Source of the DNA: an uncultured Planctomycetota bacterium
Lineage (GTDB): Bacteria; Planctomycetota; Planctomycetia; Isosphaerales; Isosphaeraceae
Direction: 5' to 3'
Assembly (NCBI GenBank): GCA_963823665.1
Contig: CAWGMQ010000008.1
Coordinates: 1,760,001 to 1,824,000, forward strand
DNA: 64,000 nt
Below, piece after piece: positions 666-15,330 of this stretch. Positions within the stretch are counted from its first letter, which is position 1. Each line of letters starts with the position of its first letter. The position numbers and the translations under genes are program-made. The notes under the pieces were generated by a model that had not been told where the DNA came from, made no database searches, and saw nothing but the letters and a program-made list of their open reading frames with translations.

Positions 666-1425
666 CTATTCCGCGGTCGGAAGTGCGTGAACGGCGGCTT
701 GATGGATGCGAAGGTCCGCGCACGTCATCTGGTAGCTGGCTTCCAGATCAAGGGGCACGGAGAAGTCGGTGGCGATCCACAAAGGGAGGGTCGGGAGCGG
801 CTGGCCCAGGGCGAACGGTGCCGGCCAAACCTCGAGTTGCTGCGACGCTTCTTCACGCGGCACGGCTCTATAGGAAACTGCCGACAGGCTCGACGGCGGC
901 AGGGCCGCCGCGCCCATATCGACCCCGAGGAGGGACAGGATGGTGCTGTTCAGATCTGCTCGTCGCGTGGTGACGGTGTCCACGACGACGAGCGCTACTT
1001 CCCTGTTGCAGGTAGCCGACACACTTGACCGCGAACGCCTGCCTGGATGCGGAGCGGTCCTTGTTCGGCGGGCTGAGCAGCTCGACGGCTGCCGCGAGGC
1101 GGGGGTCGCCGTCGTCAGCAAATATCTGAACCTCGACGCCATCAACGTTGGCCAGATCGACCGCGACGGCGAGGGCGGGTGCCGGTGCCTCCCAAGTCGA
1201 ATGCTCTGCCCCGCCGCGCACGCAGCCAGGGGTTTCCCGATCTTGCAGTGTGGCGACGTCGATCTCGATGGGGCCATCGCGATCCACGAGGGGGACGGCG
1301 TAATAGCCTGCGGGCAAGACCCTCTGGTTGAGTAGCCGGGCCATGGCTGCGGCCCACGCCCCATGGAAGCTGCGCCAGGGATGAGTTCGGTTCAACGGGG
1401 GGTTGAAATGGTCCAGCAGCGGCAT
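666..1425 (-). CDS. DUF4058 family protein (planctomycete, PD-(D/E)XK-like), split by one frameshift near 995
   Basis: MPLLDHF..PWRSFHGAWA start and VELLSPPNKDR motif in ORF 868-1425; continues as VALVVVD..QPLPTLPLWI..VPLDLEASY in ORF 666-1364. Confidence 0.8.
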
Positions 1426-1524
1426 AGGAGGCCCTTCGCGGTATCACTGGCCATCCGCAATAGAGGTCAGTGTATCCGGAGTCCGCATGATGAGGAAGAT
1501 TGATACCAGCCGCTGAGGTAACGA

Positions 1525-1915
1525 CACCATCGTAGGTCAGGTCGCCGTTCTCCGTGAGCGAGCCGTATGTCGAGGGTGCGTACTGGTACGAGAACGAGCT
1601 GCCCGCGCACGAGCCGGTTGTCGCCGAGCCGAAGCTGGCGCTGATCTGCGCCGAGCCGTCGAGCGTGCCGGTGATCGTTTTCCCGAGCGAGAAGTTGTCG
1701 GAGCCCGTCTCGCCCTCGGTGAACGTGTACGTGTCGCCGCTGGTACCCTTGGTGCCGGAGGCTTTCATATTCGCATTGTCATTGCCGGAGTCGGTCCAAC
1801 CGACGGAGTTCAAGCCGCTCTCGCTTTGGCTGTTGGTGTTCCCGGCGATTGAGTGGTCGTCGCTGACCGTAAACGTGTCGAGCGAAGTGGTGGTCGTATC
1901 GCCGATTGTGATCAC
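1525..1915 (-). pseudogene. Orphan S/T/G-rich toxin stalk fragment with no toxin tip
   Basis: VITIGDTTTTSLDTF..GSLTENGDLTYDGV is nearly identical to the N-part of ORF 6705-8537, then diverges. Confidence 0.75.
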
Positions 1916-1971
1916 GCCCGAATCGCTGACGCTGTGGCTCCTCCGTGTAACGCCTCCCCAGGAGATTCGGT

Positions 1972-2272
1972 GGGTGTCTGGCTCCTTCCGGACTTGCTGG
2001 TGGTCGTGTCGCCGATTGTGATCACGCCCGAATCGCTGACGCTGTGGCTTCTCCGTGTAACGTCTCCGCGGGAGATTTGGTGGGTGCCTGGCTCCTTTGG
2101 TGTCTGGCTCCTTCAGGAAATTGGGTGGGTGTCTGGCTCCTTGGTGTCTGGCTCCTTGGCTCCTTCTGTGCGTGTTCGAAGTGATCAGAGGCCCTGGTTT
2201 TGCGCCGAACGTGCGAGCCGCGAATGAGTGGATGCGGGGGGCCGTGATAAAAGGATGGGTGTCTGAAATCTC
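1972..2272. repeat. Cluster of short REP-like units GGTG(T/C)CTGGCTCCTT plus GGGTGTCTGAAATCTC
   Basis: About 5 full and partial copies between 1972 and 2166, another core at ~2257-2272; minus-strand core CAGACACC. Confidence 0.85.
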
Positions 2273-2274
2273 TT

Positions 2275-2976
2275 CTATTCGGTCGACGTACGCAGGCGTT
2301 CACTCTGTTCACATAGCGCGTCAATGTACAGTTGTGCGCCGATGCTGTTCGCAATCGATCGAGCGTTTTGTCGGCACAGGTCGACATAATCATTGTCGAA
2401 GTATCCACGACTGAGCATGTGCTCAGCGAGCGGTATGCAAGCCTCGAAGATTCGGTCGATCTTGCTCTTGCCCTGGGCAAGCTGACGAACGGTCTCCACA
2501 ACCGCCAGCACGGTTGTGTCGTTTTCCTTCGCCACACGCAACACGGTTGCGAGTGCTTTTCGCTCGATGTGGTAGCTAAAATACCGGCGCGTATTAAATG
2601 CAGGTTCGGCGAGCTCGGACCTGATCGGCGCGACAAAGCACCTCACACTCGGTAGTAGTGTGATAATCCTTTTTTGGCAGTTAATGAAGAAATGCTCGTC
2701 GACGTTGAACTCGCTGCCAATTCGGACCCTGTATCCGACGTAAAGCGCGTCGAGCCCGTCACCGGGCTCGTCAGGCGGGGCCACCCACAAATTGACGTCG
2801 ACATTGGCGTGCGAGGGCCGACCATCGGACACGAAGAGGTACACAACGATGTCCGGAGCGTGACTTTGAACCATGGACGCAAACGTTTTCCCAGATCCCG
2901 CTCGCGCCGGCACGAACCGATGAAGCTTCTGCAAATCGCTGAATATCTGAAAAACACTCTCTGCGAAAGAGGCCAT
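2275..2976 (-). CDS. Putative immunity protein for the nuclease toxin tip
   Basis: 233 aa, lower GC, immediately downstream of the HINT-nuclease cassette, no signal peptide; function inferred from position. Confidence 0.65.
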   Translation of the reverse strand: MASFAESVFQIFSDLQKLHRFVPARAGSGKTFASMVQSHAPDIVVYLFVSDGRPSHANVDVNLWVAPPDEPGDGLDALYVGYRVRIGSEFNVDEHFFINCQKRIITLLPSVRCFVAPIRSELAEPAFNTRRYFSYHIERKALATVLRVAKENDTTVLAVVETVRQLAQGKSKIDRIFEACIPLAEHMLSRGYFDNDYVDLCRQNARSIANSIGAQLYIDALCEQSERLRTSTE

Positions 2977-3072
2977 AACGGTTGCTCCAGTAAAGAGTCT
3001 CTCCTTCCCGTTTGCATTTCCGCACGGTTCGCGCTTACTTTCCGCTGAGTCGATCGGCCAACGGCCCTCGCG

Positions 3073-5030
3073 TCAGCTTCCGGGCGCATCAGGGCCCCAA
3101 GTCCAAGGAATCTCTCCCCCGTCAAGCTGGTCCAATAGCGGGCCCATCTTTGGCTCAAGTTTTGGATCGTTTTCAAAATGCCAATGCGGGTTTGCGCGCC
3201 CCATTTGGAGGTTGTCAAGATCTTTGCCGATCTGAACCTCCATCCTATCCGACCCCTCCTGTGATAATGGCCGTTTTCCGAATGCATTGGCTTTGAATTC
3301 GACGTCCTTGCCATTAAAAAGCTTGTCATAATTTCGACCGCCGATGTTCTGACGACCTTTCCCGGGCCCGAAGATTTTCGTCGCCCGATTGTCGTGCCAC
3401 AGCTTCGCCCAATTCAGCCACCCGCGCCCTTTCTTGCCATCACCATTGCAGGTCGCACTCATGTTATGCGACCAGACCGCGAAGCCCCAGATCTGGTGGC
3501 CGATGAAGTATGTATGATATTCCGCCACGCACATGTTGTAAACAGGTGCTGATGGCTTCGGGCCTTCAAAGCCGTCCACCTTCAGCCAGCGGCCGTCGTG
3601 GCGCGGAGCTCGTCGCCTGCCTCGAGCTGGTGCGCGGCGACCCAGCCGCGGTCCTTCACCCAGAATGGGTGCTCGGCCGTTGTGCGGATCGTCCGGCCGT
3701 TTACGTACAGGTCGAGCAAGGGCAGGTAATTCTCGAAGGTGGCTTCGACCTGCCTCGGCACTGGCTCGGCGTCCGGGTCGTCGTCCGGGGCGGTGATCAC
3801 CCAGTCGCCGGGGCGGATGTCTTCGATGAACTTGCTGCCCTCCGGCGTCAAGATCGGCGTGCCCGCGGCGAAGCAGCCGCCGGAGAAGATGTCATAAATC
3901 GCGCCGCCTAGGGATAGGATGGCTTTGAGGGCGCCGAAGCTGTCGTTGTTGGCGATGGCTGTCCTGAGCGCGTCCAGTGAGTCGATGGCGGTCTTGGTCG
4001 CGTAGCCCAGCCGAACGAGCTTCAATCCGAATGCCACCAACTTCGCGGCCTGAGACGCGTCTTCACCGACACAGCCCAGGGGCCCCAGGATTTTGCCGAT
4101 CGTCACCTGAATGGCCGCTTCGTCGGCCATCGGCGCGATCACATTGGCGCCCTGGTCGAAGTCTTCTCTGTTTCCAAAAACCGGATCATTCGGTAGGTAT
4201 TGCAGTTGCGGGACCAAGTACTGCAGCAGCTTGCTGTGCTTGGCGAGACCTTGAAATGTGTCGAAGGATTGGCCGTTGCCAAACGTCTCGCCCAGGGCAC
4301 CTGGCATGTTCTGGAGCGTCCCTCCCAGCAGGCCCGCTTCGGTTTTCGCGCCCTGCCATAACCTGCCGAGCTGGTAAGCGGCGTCGTCCCAGAATGAGCG
4401 CTTCGGCGATCCCGCAGGTCCCGGACCAGCCGCTCCGGAGGGCGTGGCATTTCGAATCGCCACGACTCCCGGGTCGGCGGCAGAGCCGTCTGCCGGGAGA
4501 ACAAGCAGCAGATTCGAGGCCGGCAGGTCCGCATCGGGATCGGTAAGGAGTAGGTTGGTGACCCCAGGCGAGCCCGCTGGGAACATCGGCAACGCAAGCT
4601 GCTGGCCTCTGCTGATCGGCCCTGGCTGCATCGCGGTCGGGTTTTCATTGCCGCCGGCGTTGAAATTGCTCAGGCGGTTGAGCTCGCTGGTGGTGCCGCC
4701 GTCGCTCAGGCCGGTGTCCATCGATGGGGCGTTGCCGGGAATCGGTGGGCCTTGCGAGGTTGACGCGCTGCTGCCTGAGCCGGTCGTGGTTGTTATTCCG
4801 GGAAAGCTGCGGCGGTAGCCGATTCCCGAGGGGTGCGAGACCCAGTTTGTGGCGGTTTGACCGACCTCGTTGGATTCTGCGAGCCAGACCTCGGTGCCAG
4901 CGGTGTTTGCTTCGGGGAGGATGTCGGGGCCTGCGAAGGACATGGCGTGTACGCCCATGCCGCCCAAGGCGGACATGAGGCCGGAGCTGGTGTCGAGGCT
5001 GCCGGGCGAGGTGCCAAGGTGCAGTGCCAA
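3073..5030 (-). CDS. Orphan polymorphic toxin cassette 2: shared block + helical linker + pretoxin HINT + PD-(D/E)XK (REase-fold) nuclease tip; frameshift near 3600
   Basis: CFAAGTPILT, TTAEHPFWV, VYNMCVAEYHTYFIG..VWSHN (HINT); GRNYDK..VEFKAN..QIGKD..PHWHF (nuclease-type tip); restoring one C gives GDELRAHDGRWLKVDG. Confidence 0.85.
4611..5022. repeat. Direct repeat B, copy 1 (shared pre-toxin block)
   Basis: Near-identical to 7512-7923 (offset 2901); encodes HLGTSPGSLDTSSG..MQPGPISR. Confidence 0.95.
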
Positions 5031-5071
5031 GGGCTGAAGCCCGTGGCTATTGACCGGCGCCCCTTTGGGGC
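5027..5071. repeat. Palindromic REP-like double hairpin at the 5' junction of cassette 2
   Basis: CCAAGGGC-TGAA-GCCCGTGG followed by GCCCC-TTT-GGGGC. Confidence 0.6.
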
Positions 5072-5174
5072 CGAAGACGATGCCGGCGTGACCGGGTTCG
5101 TCCTCGGTGAGCGAGTTGCATGTCGAGGGTGCGAACTGGGGGGGATTGCAATGCTTGTCTATGCCCTTATGCCC

Positions 5175-6350
5175 TTAGCGATAACGCCGACGGTCACCAT
5201 TTCTCGGGGAGGCACAGATTTTGAGCCAGGGTTCGACTGACTGATCGCGCAAGTCGCTTGCAGACGTCTGGGTCACCAGAGTGCGGCCGTCGGCTGAGAG
5301 GCACAATTGGCGGCATTCCTGCAGGTTCGGGCCGCACTCAACTGTGCCCAGGACTTTGCCGGTCTCGAGGCTGATGATACTGGCAAGGTTGAAGTTTGGA
5401 TATCGACCGACGGCCAAGAGCTTTGCGCGCGACGAGATCGCCAACACGCCAGCCTGGTTCAGGGTCGTCGGCGGAACGATGTCGAAGCGCTTTGCCACTT
5501 TGCCGGATGGCACTTCAATCATTGATAGTTCTTTCTCTCCCAGGTGGAAGACGTTCGAGCCGTCATCGGAGAAGGTGAAGGCCCCGCGCGAGGGCAGGTC
5601 GAGTTTTCGGGTACCGGTCGCGAGTTCATAGACTCGTCGTTGCTGGTCAAGGAAATCGTTGACAACGGCGTATCGGCCGTCGGGCGAAATTGACTCGATG
5701 GACTGGTTGGCCCGAAAGTCAACAACGCTCAGACGTTTTCCCGACCCGATCGCCCATCGAATGACAACCGGGCGGTAAGGCGGCAATCCATCGTTCACGC
5801 CTGTGGGAACCGTTCCCACCGCGAGCAGCGTTCGATCACTCTCGGTGAACGTCAGGTTCACGGCGCCTCCCTGCTCAACGATGTGCGCCGATTGCTGTCG
5901 CCCCGGAAGTGCGAAGATGGTGATGCCTCGGCCGTGTGCTACCGCGAGCGCCCGACCGCTCTTGGAGAATGCTGCAGAGAAGGAGCCGAGGAGGCTGTCG
6001 GGCGATTCCGGCAGCATGGTTGACTTGGCGGAGGTCAGGTCCCAGAGCTCCACTCCGTGCCGCACGGGCGGCCGCGGGAAGGTTGTCGATATGCTCGAAT
6101 CGCCTCTGTACGGCAGCGCCAGGGTTCCTGCGTCTGGAGAAAGGTCCCACTTCGCGTCGTAGTAGTGCGGTGCCGCGATGCCTTCGAAGATTTGCCTGAT
6201 TTTCGCGCCGTCGTTCGGCCTAACTTTGGCGCCCTCCGGCTGCCTGGTTTTGGCGCTTTCGACCTGGTCGGGCGATGGTCCTGGACAACCGGTGGAAATC
6301 GCGGCGAGCACGAAGGTGATGGTGATTCGATGAAACACCTGGCGGGTCAT
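5175..6350 (-). CDS. WD40/beta-propeller lipoprotein, putative immunity protein for toxin tip 1
   Basis: N-terminal hydrophobic stretch ending LAAISTGC (lipobox-like); repeats LSPDAGTLA, FSKSGRALA, ISPDGRYAV, FSDDGSNV, LSADGRTLV; upstream GGAG RBS. Confidence 0.8.
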   Translation of the reverse strand: MTRQVFHRITITFVLAAISTGCPGPSPDQVESAKTRQPEGAKVRPNDGAKIRQIFEGIAAPHYYDAKWDLSPDAGTLALPYRGDSSISTTFPRPPVRHGVELWDLTSAKSTMLPESPDSLLGSFSAAFSKSGRALAVAHGRGITIFALPGRQQSAHIVEQGGAVNLTFTESDRTLLAVGTVPTGVNDGLPPYRPVVIRWAIGSGKRLSVVDFRANQSIESISPDGRYAVVNDFLDQQRRVYELATGTRKLDLPSRGAFTFSDDGSNVFHLGEKELSMIEVPSGKVAKRFDIVPPTTLNQAGVLAISSRAKLLAVGRYPNFNLASIISLETGKVLGTVECGPNLQECRQLCLSADGRTLVTQTSASDLRDQSVEPWLKICASPRNGDRRRYR

Positions 6351-6430
6351 GAGGAGTTGCTCCGCTATCTAGGCCGCATCGGTCGGAGCGATTGGTGACT
6401 GCCATCGAGGGCACAAACGGGTCAGACGCT

Positions 6431-8537
6431 CTACGACGGTGGCGGCGGTATAGGAGTGACGAGTTTCCCCGTTGGGTCGACGCCGATCCTCGGCACGTTC
6501 GGAATCCTCACTCCGTTGAGCGGGTAACTGCCTTTGGGCAAAGGTATCGGGGTTCTGTTGCGAAACTTGCGAATGCTGCCAGCGTCCCGCGGATCTGCTG
6601 ATGGCCACGACTCGCTGGGGTCGGCGAAGACATGGCGGGCGACCCTCGTGCCCCACGCCGAGAGGCGACTAAGCCAATTACTTTGATATGTAGCATCATC
6701 TTTGTTAGTCGGGTTTCGAGCCCTGAGCACGTCGGTGTCCGGAACCGGCGACTTCCCAGTAGTAGCCGCACGTTCCGAGGATCAGCGTACCGTTGGCCTC
6801 AAGGGCGTTCTGGATTGCGAGAACCAGGTCACCGATTATATTTGCCCCGGTCACTTTCACTGGCACATCTACCGGTTCACCATTCACCATTAGCGGTTCG
6901 CCGTTGAACATTGCGTTAGAATGCATCGTGATCGATGGGCTCTCGCTCTCGCCGCCAGCGTGCGACAGGATGAATATTCGCCTGAATGGCTTGCCTCCGT
7001 TCGCTGCGACCGCGTCATTGATTGCCTTTTCGAGCTCCCGTTGATTCTTCGGCTGAATTGGCGACAGCATGAAGTGGTTCGGCTTGGACGCCAACTGGAA
7101 TTCCGCGTATGTAGAGCCCCGTTGCGGGCCGGTCTCGACGGTATTCGGATCCGGTGGTTTCTCGGTTGCAGGCGAACCGGCGGTGACGATCACGAGGTCG
7201 CCAGGCCCTGGTGGCGCCTCCGGATCGACGTAGCCCTGGCGCGCTGGCGATGGCGCCGGCGTAGGTGTGCCGCCGGGCCCAAGCATCCGATTATCGGCGG
7301 GCGCGCTGACCGGAACGGATGCTAGCCCCCCGCCGTAGCCTCGCGCTGCCTGACCCGATTGCGATGAATCGACGTGGTTCGCCATGCGCGAGGCGGAGTT
7401 CTCTGGGTAATAGAGCGGGTTACCGTACGGCGTCCAGATTCCGGGCGTCTGGTCGTTCATCACAGCCGAGTCGAGCGGGCTGAGGCCGCCGCAGCCGACT
7501 TGCTCCACCCGGCTGATCGGCCCCGGCTGCATCGCGGTCGGGTTTTCATTACCGCCGGCGTTGAAATTGCTCAGGCGGTTGAGCTCGCTGGTGGTGCCGC
7601 CGTCGCTCAGGCCGGTGTCCATCGACGGGGCGTTGCCGGGCAGCGGGGGGCCTTGCGAGGTTGACGCGCTGCTGCCTGAGCCGGTCGTGGTTATTATTCC
7701 GGGGGAGCTGCGGCGGTAGCCGATTCCCGAGGGGTGCGAGACCCAGTTTGTGGCGGTTTGACCGACCTCGTTGGATTCTGCGAGCCAGACCTCGGTGCCA
7801 GCGGTGTTTGCCTCGGGGAGGATGTCGGGGCCCGCGAACGACATGGCGTGTACGCCCATGCCGCCTAATGCAGACATGAGGCCGGAGCTGGTGTCGAGGC
7901 TGCCGGGCGAGGTGCCGAGGTGCTCGGCGCTGCCGCGGGTCGAGCTGCCGATCTGGCCGGCCGTGTCAACGCCGGCGGTGTCGCCCTGGCCGGCGTATTC
8001 GGTCTCGGTGAGGTTGGCACCGTCGTCCGAGCCGGAGGTCGAGGTCGAGCTGTAGGTTCCGAGCGGCGTAGTTACGGCCGGGGCGCCTGTGACCGCATAT
8101 GCGGTCGAGAGCGAGTGGACGTTCAGCGTGGCGAAGGTGCTCGTCACCCCGTCGTACGTCAGGTTGCCGTCTTCCGTGAGCGAGCCGTATGTCGAGGGTG
8201 CGTACTGGTACGAGAACGAGCTGCCCGCGCACGAGCCGGTTGTCGCCGAGCCGAAGCTGGCGCTGATCTGCGCCGAGCCGTCGAGCGTGCCGGTGATCGT
8301 TTTCCCGAGCGAGAAGTTGTCGGAGCCCGTCTCGCCCTCGGTGAACGTGTACGTGTCGCCGCTGGTACCCTTGGTGCCGGAGGCTTTCATATTCGCATTG
8401 TCATTGCCGGAGTCGGTCCAACCGACGGAGTTCAAGCCGCTCTCGCTTTGGCTGTTGATGTTGCCGGCGATTGAGTGGTCGTCGCTGACCGTGAACGTGT
8501 CGAGCGAAGTGGTGGTCGTATCGCCGATTGTGATCAC
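6431..8537 (-). CDS. 5'-truncated polymorphic toxin cassette 1: S/T/G-rich stalk + shared block + caspase-like (CHAT/DUF4347-type) peptidase tip; frameshift near 6730
   Basis: ORF 6705-8537 plus continuation 6431-6730; RRIFILSHAG..GTLILGTCG His/Cys pattern, each residue following a hydrophobic strand. Confidence 0.7.
7512..7923. repeat. Direct repeat B, copy 2
   Basis: Aligns with 4611-5022. Confidence 0.95.
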
Positions 8538-8779
8538 GCCCGAGTCGCTGACGCTGTGGCTTCTCCGTGTAACGTCTCCGCGGGAGATTTGGTGGGTGCC
8601 TGGCTCCTTTGGTGTCTGGCTCCTTCAGGAAATTGGGTGGGTGTCTGGCTCCTTTGGCTCCTTGGCTCCTTCTGTGCGTGTTCGAAGTGATCAGAGGCCC
8701 TGGTTTTGCGCCGAACGTGCGAGCCGCGAATGAGTGGATGCGGGGGGCCGTGATCAAACGATGGGTGTCTGAAATCTCT
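8146..8779. repeat. Direct repeat A, copy 2, including REP-like cluster 8593-8671 and GGGTGTCTGAAATCTC
   Basis: Aligns with 1525-2273. Confidence 0.95.
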
Positions 8780-8787
8780 GAAATCTC

Positions 8788-9145
8788 CCACAACCCAAAA
8801 ATGTTCGTCGCTTTCCACAGGAAACGATTTGTACCGTCCCTGGTAAACATGGCCCAGCCCCGCGTAGCCCCGATGCTGTTGCCACCGTCGCACATGGGTG
8901 ACCGTCAGCCGCTGCATGAACGCTGCCAAGTCCCCATCGCTCGCCGGCCAAACCAGAAGATGCCAGTGGTTCGGCATCAGCGCATAGGCACACACCCGCA
9001 TCGGCGATTCATCGCGTGTTTCCCGCAAGACGTGCTCAAACGCCTCGTAATCCGTTGGCTCTTCGAACAACTGCATGCGCGCCACGCCTCGATTCAAGAC
9101 GTGGAAGACCATCCCGCCTGGGGCGACCCGCGCTGTTCTTGGCAT
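8788..9145 (-). mobile_element. Truncated IS200-like Y1 / REP-associated tyrosine transposase (RAYT-type)
   Basis: MPRTAR..FHVLNRG, CAYALMPNHWHLLV (HUH), GHVYQGRYKSFPVE; homology ends at DEHFWVV, just before the expected catalytic-Tyr helix. Confidence 0.9.
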
Positions 9146-9184
9146 CGAACCAAGTTACCAACAGACCACCTATTTTGCCAATAT

Positions 9185-9204
9185 CGGACCTGACCCCGTT
9201 TTCC
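9185..9204. repeat. REP-like unit upstream of the transposase (GGACCTGACCCCGTTTT)
   Basis: Core CTGACCCC resembles CAGACACC of the downstream cluster, in opposite orientation. Confidence 0.5.
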
Positions 9205-9292
9205 TCCCGCATGATGTGCGGGGGCCGTGAGTTGATGTGAGTTCTGATGCGCGGCGAGCGGATCACTGTGGGTGACGCCCTTCACCCCCTGG

Positions 9293-9311
9293 CCCCCCTT
9301 GGCAAGGGGGG
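9293..9311. repeat. Palindromic REP-like hairpin CCCCCCTT-GGC-AAGGGGGG
   Basis: Perfect 8-bp stem in intergenic DNA. Confidence 0.6.
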
Positions 9312-9742
9312 GAAAGGGACGGGTGGAGGCTTCCGCTCGAGCGCGGTGCTTCGAGCGGAACGCTGGCGGATTACGGGGCGTTGGCGAGGCGCTTGACTCC
9401 AATCACTTACCTCAGGTATTTCAGTTTGATAATCTGGATGTCGTCGACTCGCGGTCGCTCTGGTTCAGGAGGCACGGTTTCCAGGACGATGACCTGCCCT
9501 CGTCTGTCGGGCTCCCGCGAGGCGGAATGCGAGACGCGCCGAATCGATGCGCGGAGGCGAGAGGGTTCCTCCTGCCAGAACTGTGAGAGAAACGAAGCAA
9601 GGGTCGTGACGAGGCGGGCGCGGCGAAGTGAATTGCCAGGCATTGAGATGACATCACCAGGGGTCGGGTGAGCTGCCGCAGCAGGGCGTCGAAGAACAAC
9701 TTCGGGGTTGCATCATTCGCTCGTATGAGAGGACGAATTGTG

Positions 9743-12700
9743 ATGCGCAAAGCCGCAATTGGATCCGGGCGTTCCAGGACTCGCACTCTTCGCAGGACAC
9801 TGACCCGGTTCCGGCTCGAGTGGCTCGAGCCTCGTGAACTGCTCACGGCGTATACCGTCACCGATACGAGCGACAACACGAGCATGGGCTCGCTGCGGTG
9901 GGCGATTACCCAGGTCGATGGTGACTCAAGCCTCGACACCATCAAATTCGCGATTTCGGGAACGGGGGTCCAGACAATCGACCTGGGCTCACCATTGCCC
10001 CAAATCACCAATTCCGTCCTCATCGACGGCACCACGCAGAACAATTCCTCGGGACCACCGCAGATTGCGATCAATGGGGCCTCCCTATCTTCCTCTGCCT
10101 CGGTCCTTGATGACACGGGGGGATCGTTCACGATCAAGGACGTGGCGATCGTCGGCTGCCCGGGGACAGGGATCGAGTTGACCGGGGGCGCGAACGATTT
10201 GATCGAGGGATGCTACGTTGGAACGTCCGACGGCGCGCATGCCACGGCCAATGGCACAGGCATCGAGCTATTCGGTTCAGCGGATGTCACGATCGGAGGG
10301 ACGAGCGCCGCCAGCCAGAACGTCATTTCGGGCAACACGCAAAATGGCATCGAGCTGGCACCCGGTTCAAACAATGACGACGCCATCGGCACACTCATCG
10401 AGGGAAACATCATCGGCCTCGTGGCGGGGGGCACGGCGCCCTCGGGAACGGCAGCGACGGCATCTTTCAGAATGGCGCCAACAACACGACGATCGGCGGC
10501 ACCACGGCGCTTCAGCGAAACATCATCTCTGGTAACTCGGGAGATGGGATCTCCCTCGGTACCGGTATCGACTCGCTGGTGGAGGGTAACTATCTCGGCA
10601 CCGATACGACGGGTATGGTGGCCCTGGGCAACAACAACGGCTTGAATTTCACCAACGCGTCGTATGCCACGATCGGCGGGACGGTGAGCGGGGCCGGCAA
10701 CCTGATCTCGGGCAATAACGGCGGCGGGATCAACTGTTTTGTGCTGGGCTCGACGGCTGAGCTGATCGAGGGGAACCTGATCGGGGTGGACATCACCGGC
10801 AGGCGTGCGCTGCCGAACAAGAGCCACGGCCTCCGGATCGCCGGCCCGACCAACTGCACGATCGGGGGTACGGTCGCGCGCGCGGCGAACGTGATCTCCG
10901 GCAACGGCGGTGACGGAGTAAACCTCACCGTCGGCCCCGCCAACGGGACGTACGTTCTCGGCAACTTTATCGGCACCGACTCCTTCGGTGACAACCTCGG
11001 CAATGTGGGCCGCGGCGTTGACATTGGGTCCGACGACGTCACGGTCGGCGGCACCGCCAGTGGCGCCGCCAATGTGATCGCGTTCAACGGAAGCTCAGGG
11101 ATTTTCGTTGGTGGCAACCTCGATCACAATTCCTTTCTTTCCAACTCGATCTACGACAACACCGACCTGGGCATCAACCTGGGCAACGGCCCGACTCCGA
11201 ACCATCTCGACGAACAAGGCTTCACCATACCTGCACCGAACGACTATCAGAACTATCCGGTCTTGACGTCGGCGACGTCCACATCAAAGTCGACCGAGAT
11301 CATCGGCACGCTCAATGCGTCGGCCAGCACATCTTATCTCGTCCAGTTTTTCGCGAGCCCCACCGCTGATGCCTCGGGATTTGGACAGGGCCAGCTCTAC
11401 CTCGGCAGCGCGACCGTGCCGACCGGAGCGAACTTTAACGCAAGCATTAACGCCACAGTGAACACCGCGACTCCGGCCGGCTGGGTTGTCTCGGCCACCG
11501 CGACCGACCCGCTGGGCAACACGTCCGAGTTTTCACAAGACGTCATTCCGGTGGCCAGTGCCGACATGGGCGTCGCGATCACCTCGTCGCCTACTTCGGC
11601 GGCGTATGCAGGCAGCAACCTGACATATACGGTGACGGCCACGGCGAACGGGCCGGGGACTGCTCAGGGCGTGACCGTCACCGATACGCTGCCGGCGAAC
11701 ATCGGCCAGAACGTGATCGCAAGCACGTCGGTCGCCGGCGTCACGCCGATCATTTCCGGGAACACAGTGACCGCCGATTTCGGCGCTATGGCCGCGAACA
11801 CGTCGGCAATGCTCACCATCACGGTCGTGCCGACCGCCGCCGCAATACCCCAGATCACCGATCAGGCGACGGTCACCACCCAGGGTAGCATCGACCCCAA
11901 CCCGAACAACAACTCTGCCTCGCTCACGACCACGATCGATCCCGCGGCCGACCTCGCACTTTCCCTGGCGGGGCTCCCGAGCACGGTCACCGTCGGCAAT
12001 TCAGTCACATACACATTGACCGCGACGAACGCCGGTCCTTCGGATGCGGACGACGTTGTCGTGACGGATATCCTGCCACTGGATATCACTTCGTCCGTGA
12101 CGGCGAGCACGTCGGTTGGCGGCGTGACGCCCACGGTTGCGAACGGTCAGGTCACGGCGGACCTCGGTACTCTCGCCATGGGCGCGTCGGCCACGGTGAC
12201 GATCACCGTCGTGCCCGACGGCGCGGCGGTTCCCCAGATCATCGACAGCGCCTTCATTTCCAGCAGTACTTATGATCCTGACCAGGGCAACAACTCGCCC
12301 CCCGCGGTGACAACGACGGTCAACCCTGTTCCAATGAGCGACCTGTCGATCACGATGTCGGGCGCGCCCGACCCCGTCTACGCCGGCAGCAACTTGACCT
12401 ACACGATCAAAGCAACCAACAGTGGGCCGTCGACCGACCCGGACGCAGTCGTCACCGACACGCTGCCGGCCAACGTGACCTTCGTGTCGGCCACCGGCGG
12501 GGTAACGCCTTCAGGCGACGTTTTGACGCTGCCGCTGGGCGGCCTGGCTTCGAATTCCACAACCACGGTGACCATCGTCGTGACCCCGACGGCTGCGGCG
12601 GCGGGCTCCGGTAGTGCCTCGATCACGAATAGCGCGGTGATCACCGGAGAGTACAACAGCAACCTCCAGAATTCGGCCTCGACGTCGACCACGGTGATGG

Positions 12701-15330
12701 CCTCGACAGCCATCGCGATCCAGGTCGCGCCGCAGCCCACAACGGCCCAGGCCGGCCAGGACTTGACGTACACGGTCACGGCCACCAACAACGGTCCGTC
12801 GAATGCCACCGGCTTGGTCTTGACCGACACGCTTCCTTCGGTCATCGGGGCAAACGTGTCCGCGATGACCTCGGTACCTGGTGTGACTGCTGTCGTCTCA
12901 GGTGGGCAGGTGACCGCGAGCTTCGGCGAGGTGGACCTCAATGATTCGCTTACGTTGACGATCACCGTTGTGCCGACGCTTGCGGCGGTGACTGATTCGC
13001 CGCTGGTCGACACCGCAACGGTCACCAATAACGAATTCAATTCCGACCCGAATACCGCGATGAGCTCGGTGCCCGTGGCGCCGGTGAGCAACCTTTCGAT
13101 CACCATGTCGGGTCCGCCCGGCTCGGTCGGTGTCGGGAGCGACGTGACGTATACGATCAGTGCGAGCAACAGTGGGCCCTCGACCGACCCGGACGCGGTC
13201 GTGACCGACACACTACCGGCCAACGTGACGTTCGTGTCGGCCACGGGCGGAGCGACTCCGTCCGGAGGCGTGCTAACCTTGCCGCTGGGCAGCATGGCGC
13301 CAGGCGCCATGACCACGATGACGATCGTGGTGACGCCCACCGCGGTTGCGGCCGGCACGGGCACCGGTTCGATCACGAACAGCGCCGTCATCACGTCGCC
13401 ATCGGACGCCAACCTCGAGAACTCGGCGTCGGTGCAGACGACGGTTACGGCCGTGACGGCGATCGGGCTTCACATGACGGCGACGAACGGCCCGAATTAC
13501 GTCGACGGGGACCTGGAGTACACGATCACGGCGACGAACAGCGGCCCGTCGAACGCCACCGGCGTGGTGCTGGCCGATACACTTCCTGGAGACATCAGCT
13601 CGAACGTGACGGCCACCACGTCGGTGCCGGGGGTGGGTGCCTCGATCGCGGGCGGTCAGGTGACCGCGGACTTCGGTGCACTGAACGTCGATGAGTCTGT
13701 CACGCTGACGATCACGGTGGTGCCGACTGCGACCGCGGTCGCCGACTCGCCGCTGGTCAATCTCGTGAAGGTCACGAACAACGAGTTCGACGCGAGCCCG
13801 AGCACGGCGACGCTGTCGACGACGATCCTTCCCGTCTCCGACCTGGCGATCACGCAGTTCACCGCCGCGCCTGCGGCCGTCACCTACGGGAGCGCGGTCA
13901 CGTATACGGCGGCGGTCATCAACCACGGGCCGTCGCCGGCGACCGGTTTGACAGTGACTCTGCCGATGCCGGCGTTCACCACATTCGCATCGGGGTCGTG
14001 GACCATACCGTCGCACCCAATCGATCTCGCTGGGACCGTCGATCAAGAGGGATCGAACCTGGTCGCCGACATCGGCAACCTGGCGGTCGGCTCGACTGTG
14101 ACGGTCACTATCGTGGTCACACCCCAGCAGGATGCGGTTGGAACGCTCAATGCGACGATCACCGCCTCGGCCGACGGATTCAACGAGACGGCGAGCGCCG
14201 CCACAAACACTTTGCAGACGACTGTCGAAGATCAGCCGGGGAACTTGCAATTCAGCGCGGCCGGCTACGAGGTGCCCGAAACCGCCGGTTCCGCGACCAT
14301 CACCGTGATTCGGACGGACGGGCTGCGAGGGCAGGTCTCGGTGAATTTCACGACGGTTCCGATGAGCGCGACCGCCGGCCTCGATTACACACCGGTCGCC
14401 CAGACGGTCGTGTTTCCGGCGGGCGTGGCGCGGGAGACGATTCAGGTGCCGGTGCTGGCCGACCCGTACGATGACCGCAATGAGCTGGTGGGGCTTGCCA
14501 TCAGCGATCCGACCGGGGGCGCGGCATTGGGCGCCGTGACGACAGCGACTTTGACGATAGAGGACACCGACCCGAACTCCACCGTGCCGATGGTCTCGGC
14601 CGTTCAGTGGACGGGGACGGCACGATCGATCACGAGCCTGATCATCAGCTTCAACGAGCCACTTGCGGCCGCGACTGCCGACAACCCCGCCAATTTCGAG
14701 CTGGCCGGGGTGGGCAAGAAGGGTACGTTCAGCACACAGCACGACATGCCGCTGGCTATTGAGCCGCCGGTATACGACCCGTCGAACTTTACGGTTACGC
14801 TGGTTCCCACTCACGCGTTGGGGATCAATCAGTTTTACAGCTTGCTTCTCAAAGGCACGCCGGGTGGAATTACCAATGGCGGCGGCATCGAGCTGGCCGG
14901 CGCAGGGGCTGGCCAGATCGGAACGAATTTCACTGCGTTGTTTGCGCAGGGGACGAACCTGAAATACACGGACGCGGGCGGAAACCAGGTTTCGTTCGGC
15001 GTCAAGGGGGGTGGTTACCTCCAGGATCTGCTCACGGGCTCAGGGGTAGGCCAGCGGCTTGTGCTCGTCGGCGAGGTGCCACACCGCACGATTGTTAGCG
15101 GCAGTGTCAAGCAGGGTAAGCACGGCACCGGCCGGGCCTATCTGGGCTATTCGTTTTACGGGCTGGGCCAGTTCGGAAATGTGCGGGTGACGCTCAAGAG
15201 CCCGCCGTTCCAGATTCAGCGGTATCCATTCTCGCCAGGTTTGCCGCTGGGTCCGCCGACGGAGCTTGCGCGGGTGAGCAGCGCCGGGCCGGTCGCGGCC
15301 GCGCGGAGACAATCAGCCGGACGCGGGTAG
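9743..15330 (+). CDS. Giant secreted/surface protein: LEPR-XLL motif, parallel beta-helix, about 7 DUF11 domains, Calx-beta, C-terminal Ig-like domain; frameshift near 10440
   Basis: LEWLEPRELL; NVISGN/IEGNYLGTD repeats; DL.IT...P..LTYT..ATN.GPS..VVTDTLP repeats; GNLQFSAAGYEVPE..DYTPV; GAGGA RBS before ATG 9743. Confidence 0.88.

Follow-up and report, generated by a model that had tools for sequence, protein, structure and literature searches.

How do 5'-truncated toxin genes and their immunity partners come to stand side by side, and what sets the points at which they begin and end? The question is raised by a 64,000-nucleotide stretch of DNA (the window; G000:C8:1760001-1824000) from the genome of an uncultured soil planctomycete of the family Isosphaeraceae (here G000; assembly GCA_963823665.1, contig CAWGMQ010000008.1). 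On its minus strand, a cut Y1 transposase gene (PF01797, E 8e-11) is followed by a repeat cluster, a first toxin cassette of stalk, block B and tip 1, a downstream open reading frame (ORF) and a hairpin; after the hairpin come a second cassette of block B, PT-HINT and tip 2, an Imm25 ORF (E 2e-8), a further repeat cluster and a stalk fragment. A sequence-only reading of the window had described this order, which is borne out here. It had further proposed that all junctions lie on elements resembling repetitive extragenic palindromes (REPs), and that the adjacent REP-associated tyrosine transposase (RAYT), an HUH enzyme, assembles or mobilises the cassettes by acting on them. In this genome and its relatives, orphan toxin-immunity pieces often begin and end at the repeats of RAYTs (HUH/Y1) of the type bounded by terminal inverted repeats (TIRs), and on balance we consider it probable that the transposases of these repeats made the junctions.

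Cassette breakpoints at RAYT ends

Breakpoints of orphan toxin cassettes are associated with RAYT ends across genera. Starts of stalk-family fragments were scored after exclusion of long parents, contig-edge cases, frameshift continuations and weak matches, in an interval of -200 to +60 bp from an end motif; all 14 positives have the motif within 70 bp. Truncated fragments start at a RAYT end in 12/27 cases with our first motif set and in 14/27 with a wider set, which adds ends seen beside RAYT genes and contains one motif known from an Rhs flank alone. The junctions are enriched over three controls. With the first set, other PT-HINT ORFs gave 0/30 in five relatives and 1/19 in G000, where the single positive is an Rhs orphan, and 360 kb of neutral DNA gave 1.6%; the corresponding values with the wider set were 1/48 for other PT-HINT ORF starts and 2.3% for neutral positions. 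When distinct junction positions were counted once, 7/22 had an end vs 0.64 expected from local repeat density (9/22 vs 0.78 with the wider set), and 0 of 200,000 simulations matched the observation. An enrichment of truncation points at repeats in relatives is what the sequence-only reading had proposed to look for. The positives come from G000, G045, G025, G026 and G037, joined by G039 with the wider set, and two further junctions (G035 and contig C40 of G039) lie on another RAYT end that was recognised after the count. Several unrelated end families occupy such junctions in different genera.

At the 3' side, 15/27 cases have an end behind the tip and the next ORF, 1.3-2.8 kb past block B, as compared with 12% for 3 kb of neutral DNA; among the remaining cases, two have the end inside a tip, one has it at 3.6 kb and nine have no end. 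The uniform orientation of the 3' end motifs was not used as evidence, since any TIR element reads that way first.

Two objections had been raised together with the original proposal, and both fail. The repeats are not too dense: CAGRCACCCA occurs 226 times in 16.5 Mb, against 28 for a control pattern, and such sparseness makes junction proximity by chance untenable. Nor do homologous loci lack the repeats, as cassettes of relatives have RAYT-associated ends too, in many cases no more than 30 bp away and at both borders.

Among short Rhs fragments, 9/20 start within ~60 bp of an end with the wider motif set (the sample comprises most short-frame matches, not all 128); a long-Rhs set gave 0/19, a weak control made up mostly of internal positions. 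A second locus of G000 (L080:12300-17200) holds a truncated Rhs-HINT gene with a downstream ORF, bordered by an IS66-like element on one side and by CAGACACC ends and RAYT fragments on the other. Nine tandem ORFs of ~400-700 amino acids (aa) with C-terminal PT-HINT (L078/L079, G000:C11:154913-171069) have no TIRs. The member that was read is an intact gene with a signal-like start and a terminal HINT with no toxin tip after it, and the array was dropped as a counter-example. Because this member is intact and tipless, we use the HINT set purely as a control for gene starts.

Base-level junctions and duplicated pieces

In the window, positions 8779-8146 are repeated at 2273-1524 with 96% identity, which makes the two stalk starts copies of a single junction. 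The sequence-only reading had put both starts about 30 bp after a CAG(A/G)CACC unit; this holds as an offset of ~37 bp from a CAGGCACC unit, for a single duplicated junction and not for two. It had correctly noticed that the Imm25 ORF stops 2 bp before GAGATTTCAGACACC, that the transposase is cut at the same GAGATTTCAGACACC, and that cassette 2 begins beside the hairpin (block B starts at 5022). Its statement that all junctions sit on repeats went too far, as 1524 and 5139 lack a repeat of the motif sets used. ATTTCAGACACC has three copies in G000, two within the window and one inside a kinase gene, and both window copies of the element have a private outer-end variant; the duplicated unit therefore reaches exactly to the outer edge of the element in two contexts. 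The point at which the last GGAGAAGCC meets the stalk is attached to further end units at other loci. The junction near 8557 is spanned by a short-read contig (X1 record 8, 8458-8646) with zero differences.

Junctions in G045, read against longer copies that are 90-98% identical, fall at five different positions of the stalk and at distances of 0-60 bp from end cores; they share 8-9 bases with the end in some cases and almost none in others. One TIR-stalk junction is repeated at five loci of G025 and G026. At locus L130 of G045, an intact TIR-type RAYT (TIRYT) abuts with its right end a 791-bp piece that is 100% identical to the toxin tip region of a long gene in L129 and stops inside another TIR; the left end of this TIRYT adjoins an Rhs fragment. 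As the duplicated units of both the window pair and the 791-bp piece are bounded by an element end, we favour copying over trimming alone. A transposase-like ORF, with a start similar to an IS110 match elsewhere, lies directly beside a TIR end at the same locus (L130:8491-9849).

Circles or new junctions, for which the sequence-only reading had suggested looking, were not seen in the short-read contigs at their depth of 2-5x; the sole joint listed there is the other stalk copy. We also considered and rejected the idea that the stalk serves as a decoy for TIR cores: CWGACC has a 4-6 times higher density in three long stalks but is absent from the stalk of the window, and its density in the long stalks may merely reflect threonine codons.

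Repeat families and their transposases

The repeats of the window belong to three families, namely CAGACACC TIR ends, GGGGTCAG RAYT ends and the hairpin. The CAGACACC units had been taken for palindromic REPs of the adjacent RAYT; they are TIRs, and they flank a different kind of enzyme, intact long RAYTs of ~410-420 aa with NHLH and YVDLNP motifs (L148, L150, L152). By motif only, these owners are assigned to TnpA-Y1 subclass 2.3. This long 2.3-like family has 26 matches in G000, most of which are overlooked by a PF01797 search. The neighbouring RAYT of the window has an NHWH motif and its own end GGAAAACGGGGTCAGGTCCGATAT, distinct from CAGACACC; its paralogue L072 has the same end upstream and an inverted end downstream. 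It scores below the cut-off of NF047646, and its Y-x-x-x-NP region is absent with the cut part of the gene, a region that reads YVERN[AP] in paralogues of 220-250 aa. Its Y1/HuH core and its left end, of the form GGGG[AT][CG]A[CG] that L072 has at both ends, place it with the TIRYT type (subclass 2.1-like). Since there are three repeat families and the neighbouring RAYT is itself cut by a CAGACACC unit, the earlier view of a single RAYT accompanied by its own REPs is wrong in detail. The units are the TIRs of another RAYT or a hairpin, as distinct from the GTAG- or GTGG-footed hairpins, cognate to the adjacent RAYT, of a classical REP/REPIN-RAYT arrangement.

The ~150-bp TIR element is dispersed in G000, with at least 48 matches among those listed (40 of 198 candidates scored), and the hairpin repeat has at least 37 (40 of 72 candidates scored). 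A copy of the hairpin stands in frame inside a long RAYT gene (L074 / L178, G000:C10:189590-189653). The right end of the 150-bp element carries the same long insert at one position in L011, L013, L015, L016, L019, L021, L028 and L029 of G000, thus at no fewer than eight loci, several of which have a reverse transcriptase-like ORF within it; in our view, this insert resembles a group II intron that homes to these ends.

Layout of the window and the toxin family

The features of the array are listed in Table 1. The sequence CCTTGGCAC is present twice, at the hairpin end and at the block B start of cassette 2. Tip 1 has His/Cys motifs, and the homology of cassette 1 runs on in another frame to ~6431. 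One short-read contig (2.7x) carries a one-base indel at the HINT frame break near 3590, so this break may be an assembly error.

Table 1. Toxin cassettes, repeats and flanking genes of the array in minus-strand order (positions in the window)
Feature	Positions	Strand	Remarks
Left TIR of the neighbouring TIR-type RAYT	9179..9204	-	GGGGTCAG core, fits the GGGGWSAS consensus; precedes paralogue L072 too
5' half of TIR-type RAYT	8788..9145	-	NHWH, subclass 2.1-like; cut ahead of the catalytic tyrosine motif; paralogues L066 and L072 continue
Left part of ~150-bp dispersed TIR element	8668..8787	-	CAGACACCC end; short tandem duplication at outer edge
Cluster of GGAGCCAG(A/G)CACC end units	8558..8667	-	Final GGAGAAGCC abuts stalk
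Cassette 1: 5'-truncated Ser/Thr/Gly stalk, block B (7923-7494), tip 1	6705..8557	-	Starts at residue 543 of a longer homologue
WD40-like secreted protein, likely tip 1 immunity partner	5175..6350	-	WD40 homologues; follows tip-1 homologues in L135 and L142
41-bp stalk remnant	5099..5139	-	85% to 8208-8168; no recognised repeat at start
Dispersed hairpin repeat, third family	5023..5088	-	Stands in a stalk deletion, remnant 5139-5099 upstream
Cassette 2: block B, linker, PT-HINT, tip 2	3073..5022	-	PF07591; frame break near 3590
Imm25-family protein, likely tip 2 immunity partner	2275..2976	-	PF15564 E 2e-8; stop 2 bp before TIR element
Second copy of TIR element and end-unit cluster	1936..2273	-	110-bp tandem duplication (1998-2097 / 1888-1987)
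Stalk fragment	1524..1935	-	96.5% identical to cassette 1 start; 3' end 1524 without repeat

The cassettes possess the features of orphan polymorphic toxin modules, i.e., a 5'-truncated region common to longer genes, a variable tip and a downstream partner that travels with the tip. Judged from this layout, they are such modules, with putative toxin and immunity roles. The longer homologues have the stalk and block B in common and differ in their terminal domains, which across the family include HINT-linked domains and Peptidase_M91. Neither window tip has a named match in Pfam or NCBIfam; for tip 1 there is a weak atlas lead to DUF4347 / peptidase C80 (0.85), and a homologue of tip 2 ends an RHS protein (49% identity). 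The pair of tip 2 and Imm25 recurs in L141, and that of tip 1 and the WD40 protein in L135 and L142. The stalk family has no Pfam match, and where its records have names, these read uncultured Isosphaeraceae or Planctomycetota. With 35 candidates scored per genome, block B turned up in 11 of 121 genomes of the family, in two of them as a weak match; a metagenome scan found no relative. An ORF of possibly another toxin type in G026 (L182:2833-4864) combines an eCIS-core domain with an S1/P1 nuclease domain behind it and contains a TIR cluster.

Upstream of the cut RAYT gene, a further short dispersed hairpin-like repeat at 9272-9320 (CCCCCTGGCCCCCCTT...AAGGGGGG) is present in L080 and many short-read contigs as well, and a large gene in two frames for a surface protein with beta-helix, DUF11 and Calx-beta regions occupies 9668-15330 (+).

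A proposed mechanism and its competitors

We propose that TIR-type RAYTs, acting in trans and by a single-strand route, cut at their own ends and join these to other DNA. Such end-joining would trim long toxin genes and copy pieces of them, and pieces that carry an immunity gene would be retained; exchange of tips on a common stalk would still occur by homologous recombination. In the window, a single joining event probably linked a CAGACACC end to the stalk at 8557; the resulting end-stalk unit would afterwards have been copied behind the Imm25 gene, its far side having no end.

This end-joining is likely general and not a dedicated toxin machine, because non-toxin genes are cut at the same ends: leucine-rich repeat (LRR), WD40, sigma-factor and RAYT genes are all interrupted 1-15 bp from them. 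TIR clusters of G026 picked by motif alone (16 outside the array) and TIR regions of G025 (20, from the first 100 of 146 sites) mostly have ordinary neighbour genes. The earlier suggestion of an HUH transposase at cassette ends stands as far as junctions on RAYT ends in relatives are concerned; action of the adjacent RAYT on these units is not supported, the process is not toxin-specific, and about half of the starts have no recognisable end. In relatives, DUF4058 and Uma2 genes recurrently adjoin TIR clusters, and a DUF4058-like gene in two frames directly follows the last stalk fragment of the window (666-1425, -).

Several observations weigh against the proposed reading. No scored end is found at the start of 13/27 stalk fragments and 11/20 Rhs fragments. 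The Rhs count falls to 2/20 with the first motif set, and the set was widened after the Rhs flanks had been viewed; given this partly post hoc widening and the non-independence of kin, the Rhs figure is less solid than that for stalks. The genomes all come from metagenome assemblies, are related to one another and contain indels; G025 and G026 have one junction in common. One query found no full-length parent in G000 (genome 92% complete); long stalk-family copies exist in G045, G039 and G025. Element-end flanks cut non-toxin genes in 22/152 cases vs 17/212 in a control, a test that did not discriminate, with ~10 of the 22 positive flanks being matches to the element itself and the control confounded. 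The two 791-bp copies lie near opposite ends of one contig and may be neighbours. The shared short words CCGACCTC, CAGACCTA and CCTTGGCAC also fit host microhomology repair, and a C^T cleavage rule, by which the joined piece would begin with T, applied to roughly half of the 11 junctions that were inspected visually.

The competitor that we take most seriously, albeit as a minor possibility, is erosion, in which TIR elements insert into arrays made by homologous recombination and horizontal transfer, delete adjacent DNA and move nothing. The genes and RAYTs cut a few bases from ends, the ordinary neighbours of most TIR clusters, the variation of stalk starts between cassettes and the RAYT of the window, itself a victim, are all in line with it. 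It is harder to reconcile with duplicated units that begin exactly at an element end, as in the window pair and in the 791-bp copy on an intact element, with single cassettes bracketed on both sides that have no 5' gene part alongside (L130, L144, L142), or with one TIR-stalk junction at five G025/G026 loci. We regard it as unlikely that the G/C-run repeats are passive, serving host homologous or microhomology recombination or stalling replication with no need for RAYT catalysis. Three junctions with common words of 8-9 bp, the whole-element direct repeats that flank cassettes on contig C33 of G045 and the lack of a clear cleavage-site rule speak for such passive repeats, whereas several junctions share at most 1-3 bases and the private outer-end variant of the window copies argues against recombination of two independent element copies.

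It is tempting to go further and to propose that TIR-type RAYTs, a large class of HUH enzymes, are live transposases which capture, copy and stack toxin-immunity cassettes into arrays in Isosphaeraceae in an integron-like manner, as a source of orphan toxin modules, and express the immunity gene from their own promoter, but we rate this as improbable, slightly more so than erosion. Less probable than passive repeats is a dedicated integron-like system, with site-specific excision and integration of cassettes at TIRs by RAYTs and a putative left-end promoter driving the immunity genes. A TIR cluster at nearly every cassette boundary on contigs C49 of G026 and C33 of G045, the placement of three of the ~19 GGTCTGACCCC clusters of G026 in one array and the attachment of some stalks just inside a left end would fit it. 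An integron would be expected to have one fixed recombinase and one conserved boundary site, whereas here most clusters adjoin non-toxin genes, the junction-to-core distance varies from 0 to 70 bp, about half of the starts have no scored end, the end families are many and no fixed RAYT gene stands beside the arrays. Chance co-location in repeat-rich islands, or an artefact of long-read assembly, is very improbable. Some toxin loci, such as L127, are very TIR-rich, many lie near contig ends and the assemblies have indels, but the local-density null was rejected, an independent short-read contig bridges the window junction, and the scored sets show the pattern in five genomes from four genera.

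Relation to known systems

Ends that capture or copy adjacent DNA, or that build cassette arrays, are familiar from IS26 translocatable units, one-ended transposition of IS91/ISCR, integrons and the recombinase-associated acquired interbacterial defence (rAID) arrays of Bacteroidales. Their enzymes are DDE transposases, Y2 HUH transposases and tyrosine recombinases. Neither an attC-like site nor a fixed integrase is present here.

Closest to the elements of the window are the TIRYTs or TIRtrons (Di Nocera 2013, PMC3733652), which correspond to TnpA-Y1 subclass 2.1 (Quentin 2018, PMC6006769). According to the portions of these papers available to us, they consist of Y1/HuH genes flanked by TIRs with a GGGGWSAS core, the TIRs being scattered as singles, dimers and clusters; the same portions describe no cargo, gene-fragment junctions or activity test. 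Around genes of subclass 2.3, Quentin 2018 (PMC6006769) found no REP-like structures; the 2.3-like RAYT described here, in contrast, is bounded by clear TIRs and has a non-autonomous derivative. Enzymes of the same superfamily, the TnpA-REP proteins of E. coli, Stenotrophomonas and Marinomonas, have been shown in vitro to cleave at CT or CA on single-stranded DNA and to carry out strand transfer (PMC8266576); their hairpins are tagged with GTAG, in contrast to the TIRs without GTAG found here, for which a CT rule is not established.

The cassettes resemble orphan cdiA-CT/cdiI and rhs-CT/rhsI modules of contact-dependent inhibition (CDI) and Rhs systems in their 5'-truncated toxin pieces, variable tips, downstream partners and tandem arrays (Ruhe 2016, PMC4927057; Zhang 2012, PMC3482391; both available in part). 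The consulted part of Ruhe 2016 (PMC4927057) presents recombination models for orphan modules and notes intervening or nearby transposase and integrase genes without a mechanism; it contains no HUH/RAYT link and no base-level end junctions. Likewise, a term search of Zhang 2012 (PMC3482391) for 'RAYT' and 'HUH' gave 0 matches over its first 300,000 characters. A subclass 2.1 RAYT has been tied to another conflict-type gene family, the prochlorosins of picocyanobacteria, as a proposed diversifier, a causal claim that was later withdrawn (bioRxiv 10.1101/2020.03.09.984088, in the part available). That part reports gene adjacency only and an absence of TIRs, while here TIRs mark the breakpoints themselves. 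In agreement with the sequence-only reading, which knew of no description of such a link, our literature search, which did not extend to subscription journals or supplements, found no published connection between RAYT/TIRYT ends and toxin cassette breakpoints.

Significance

The base-level junctions tie together two questions, that of the 5' breakpoints and relocation of orphan modules and that of the role of subclass 2.1 and 2.3 RAYTs. They also name intact pairs of enzyme and end, i.e., L150 with its CAGACACC end and L130 with its own ends. If the proposed origin of the junctions is true, RAYT-type HUH enzymes would be movers of cargo DNA besides amplifiers of repeats.

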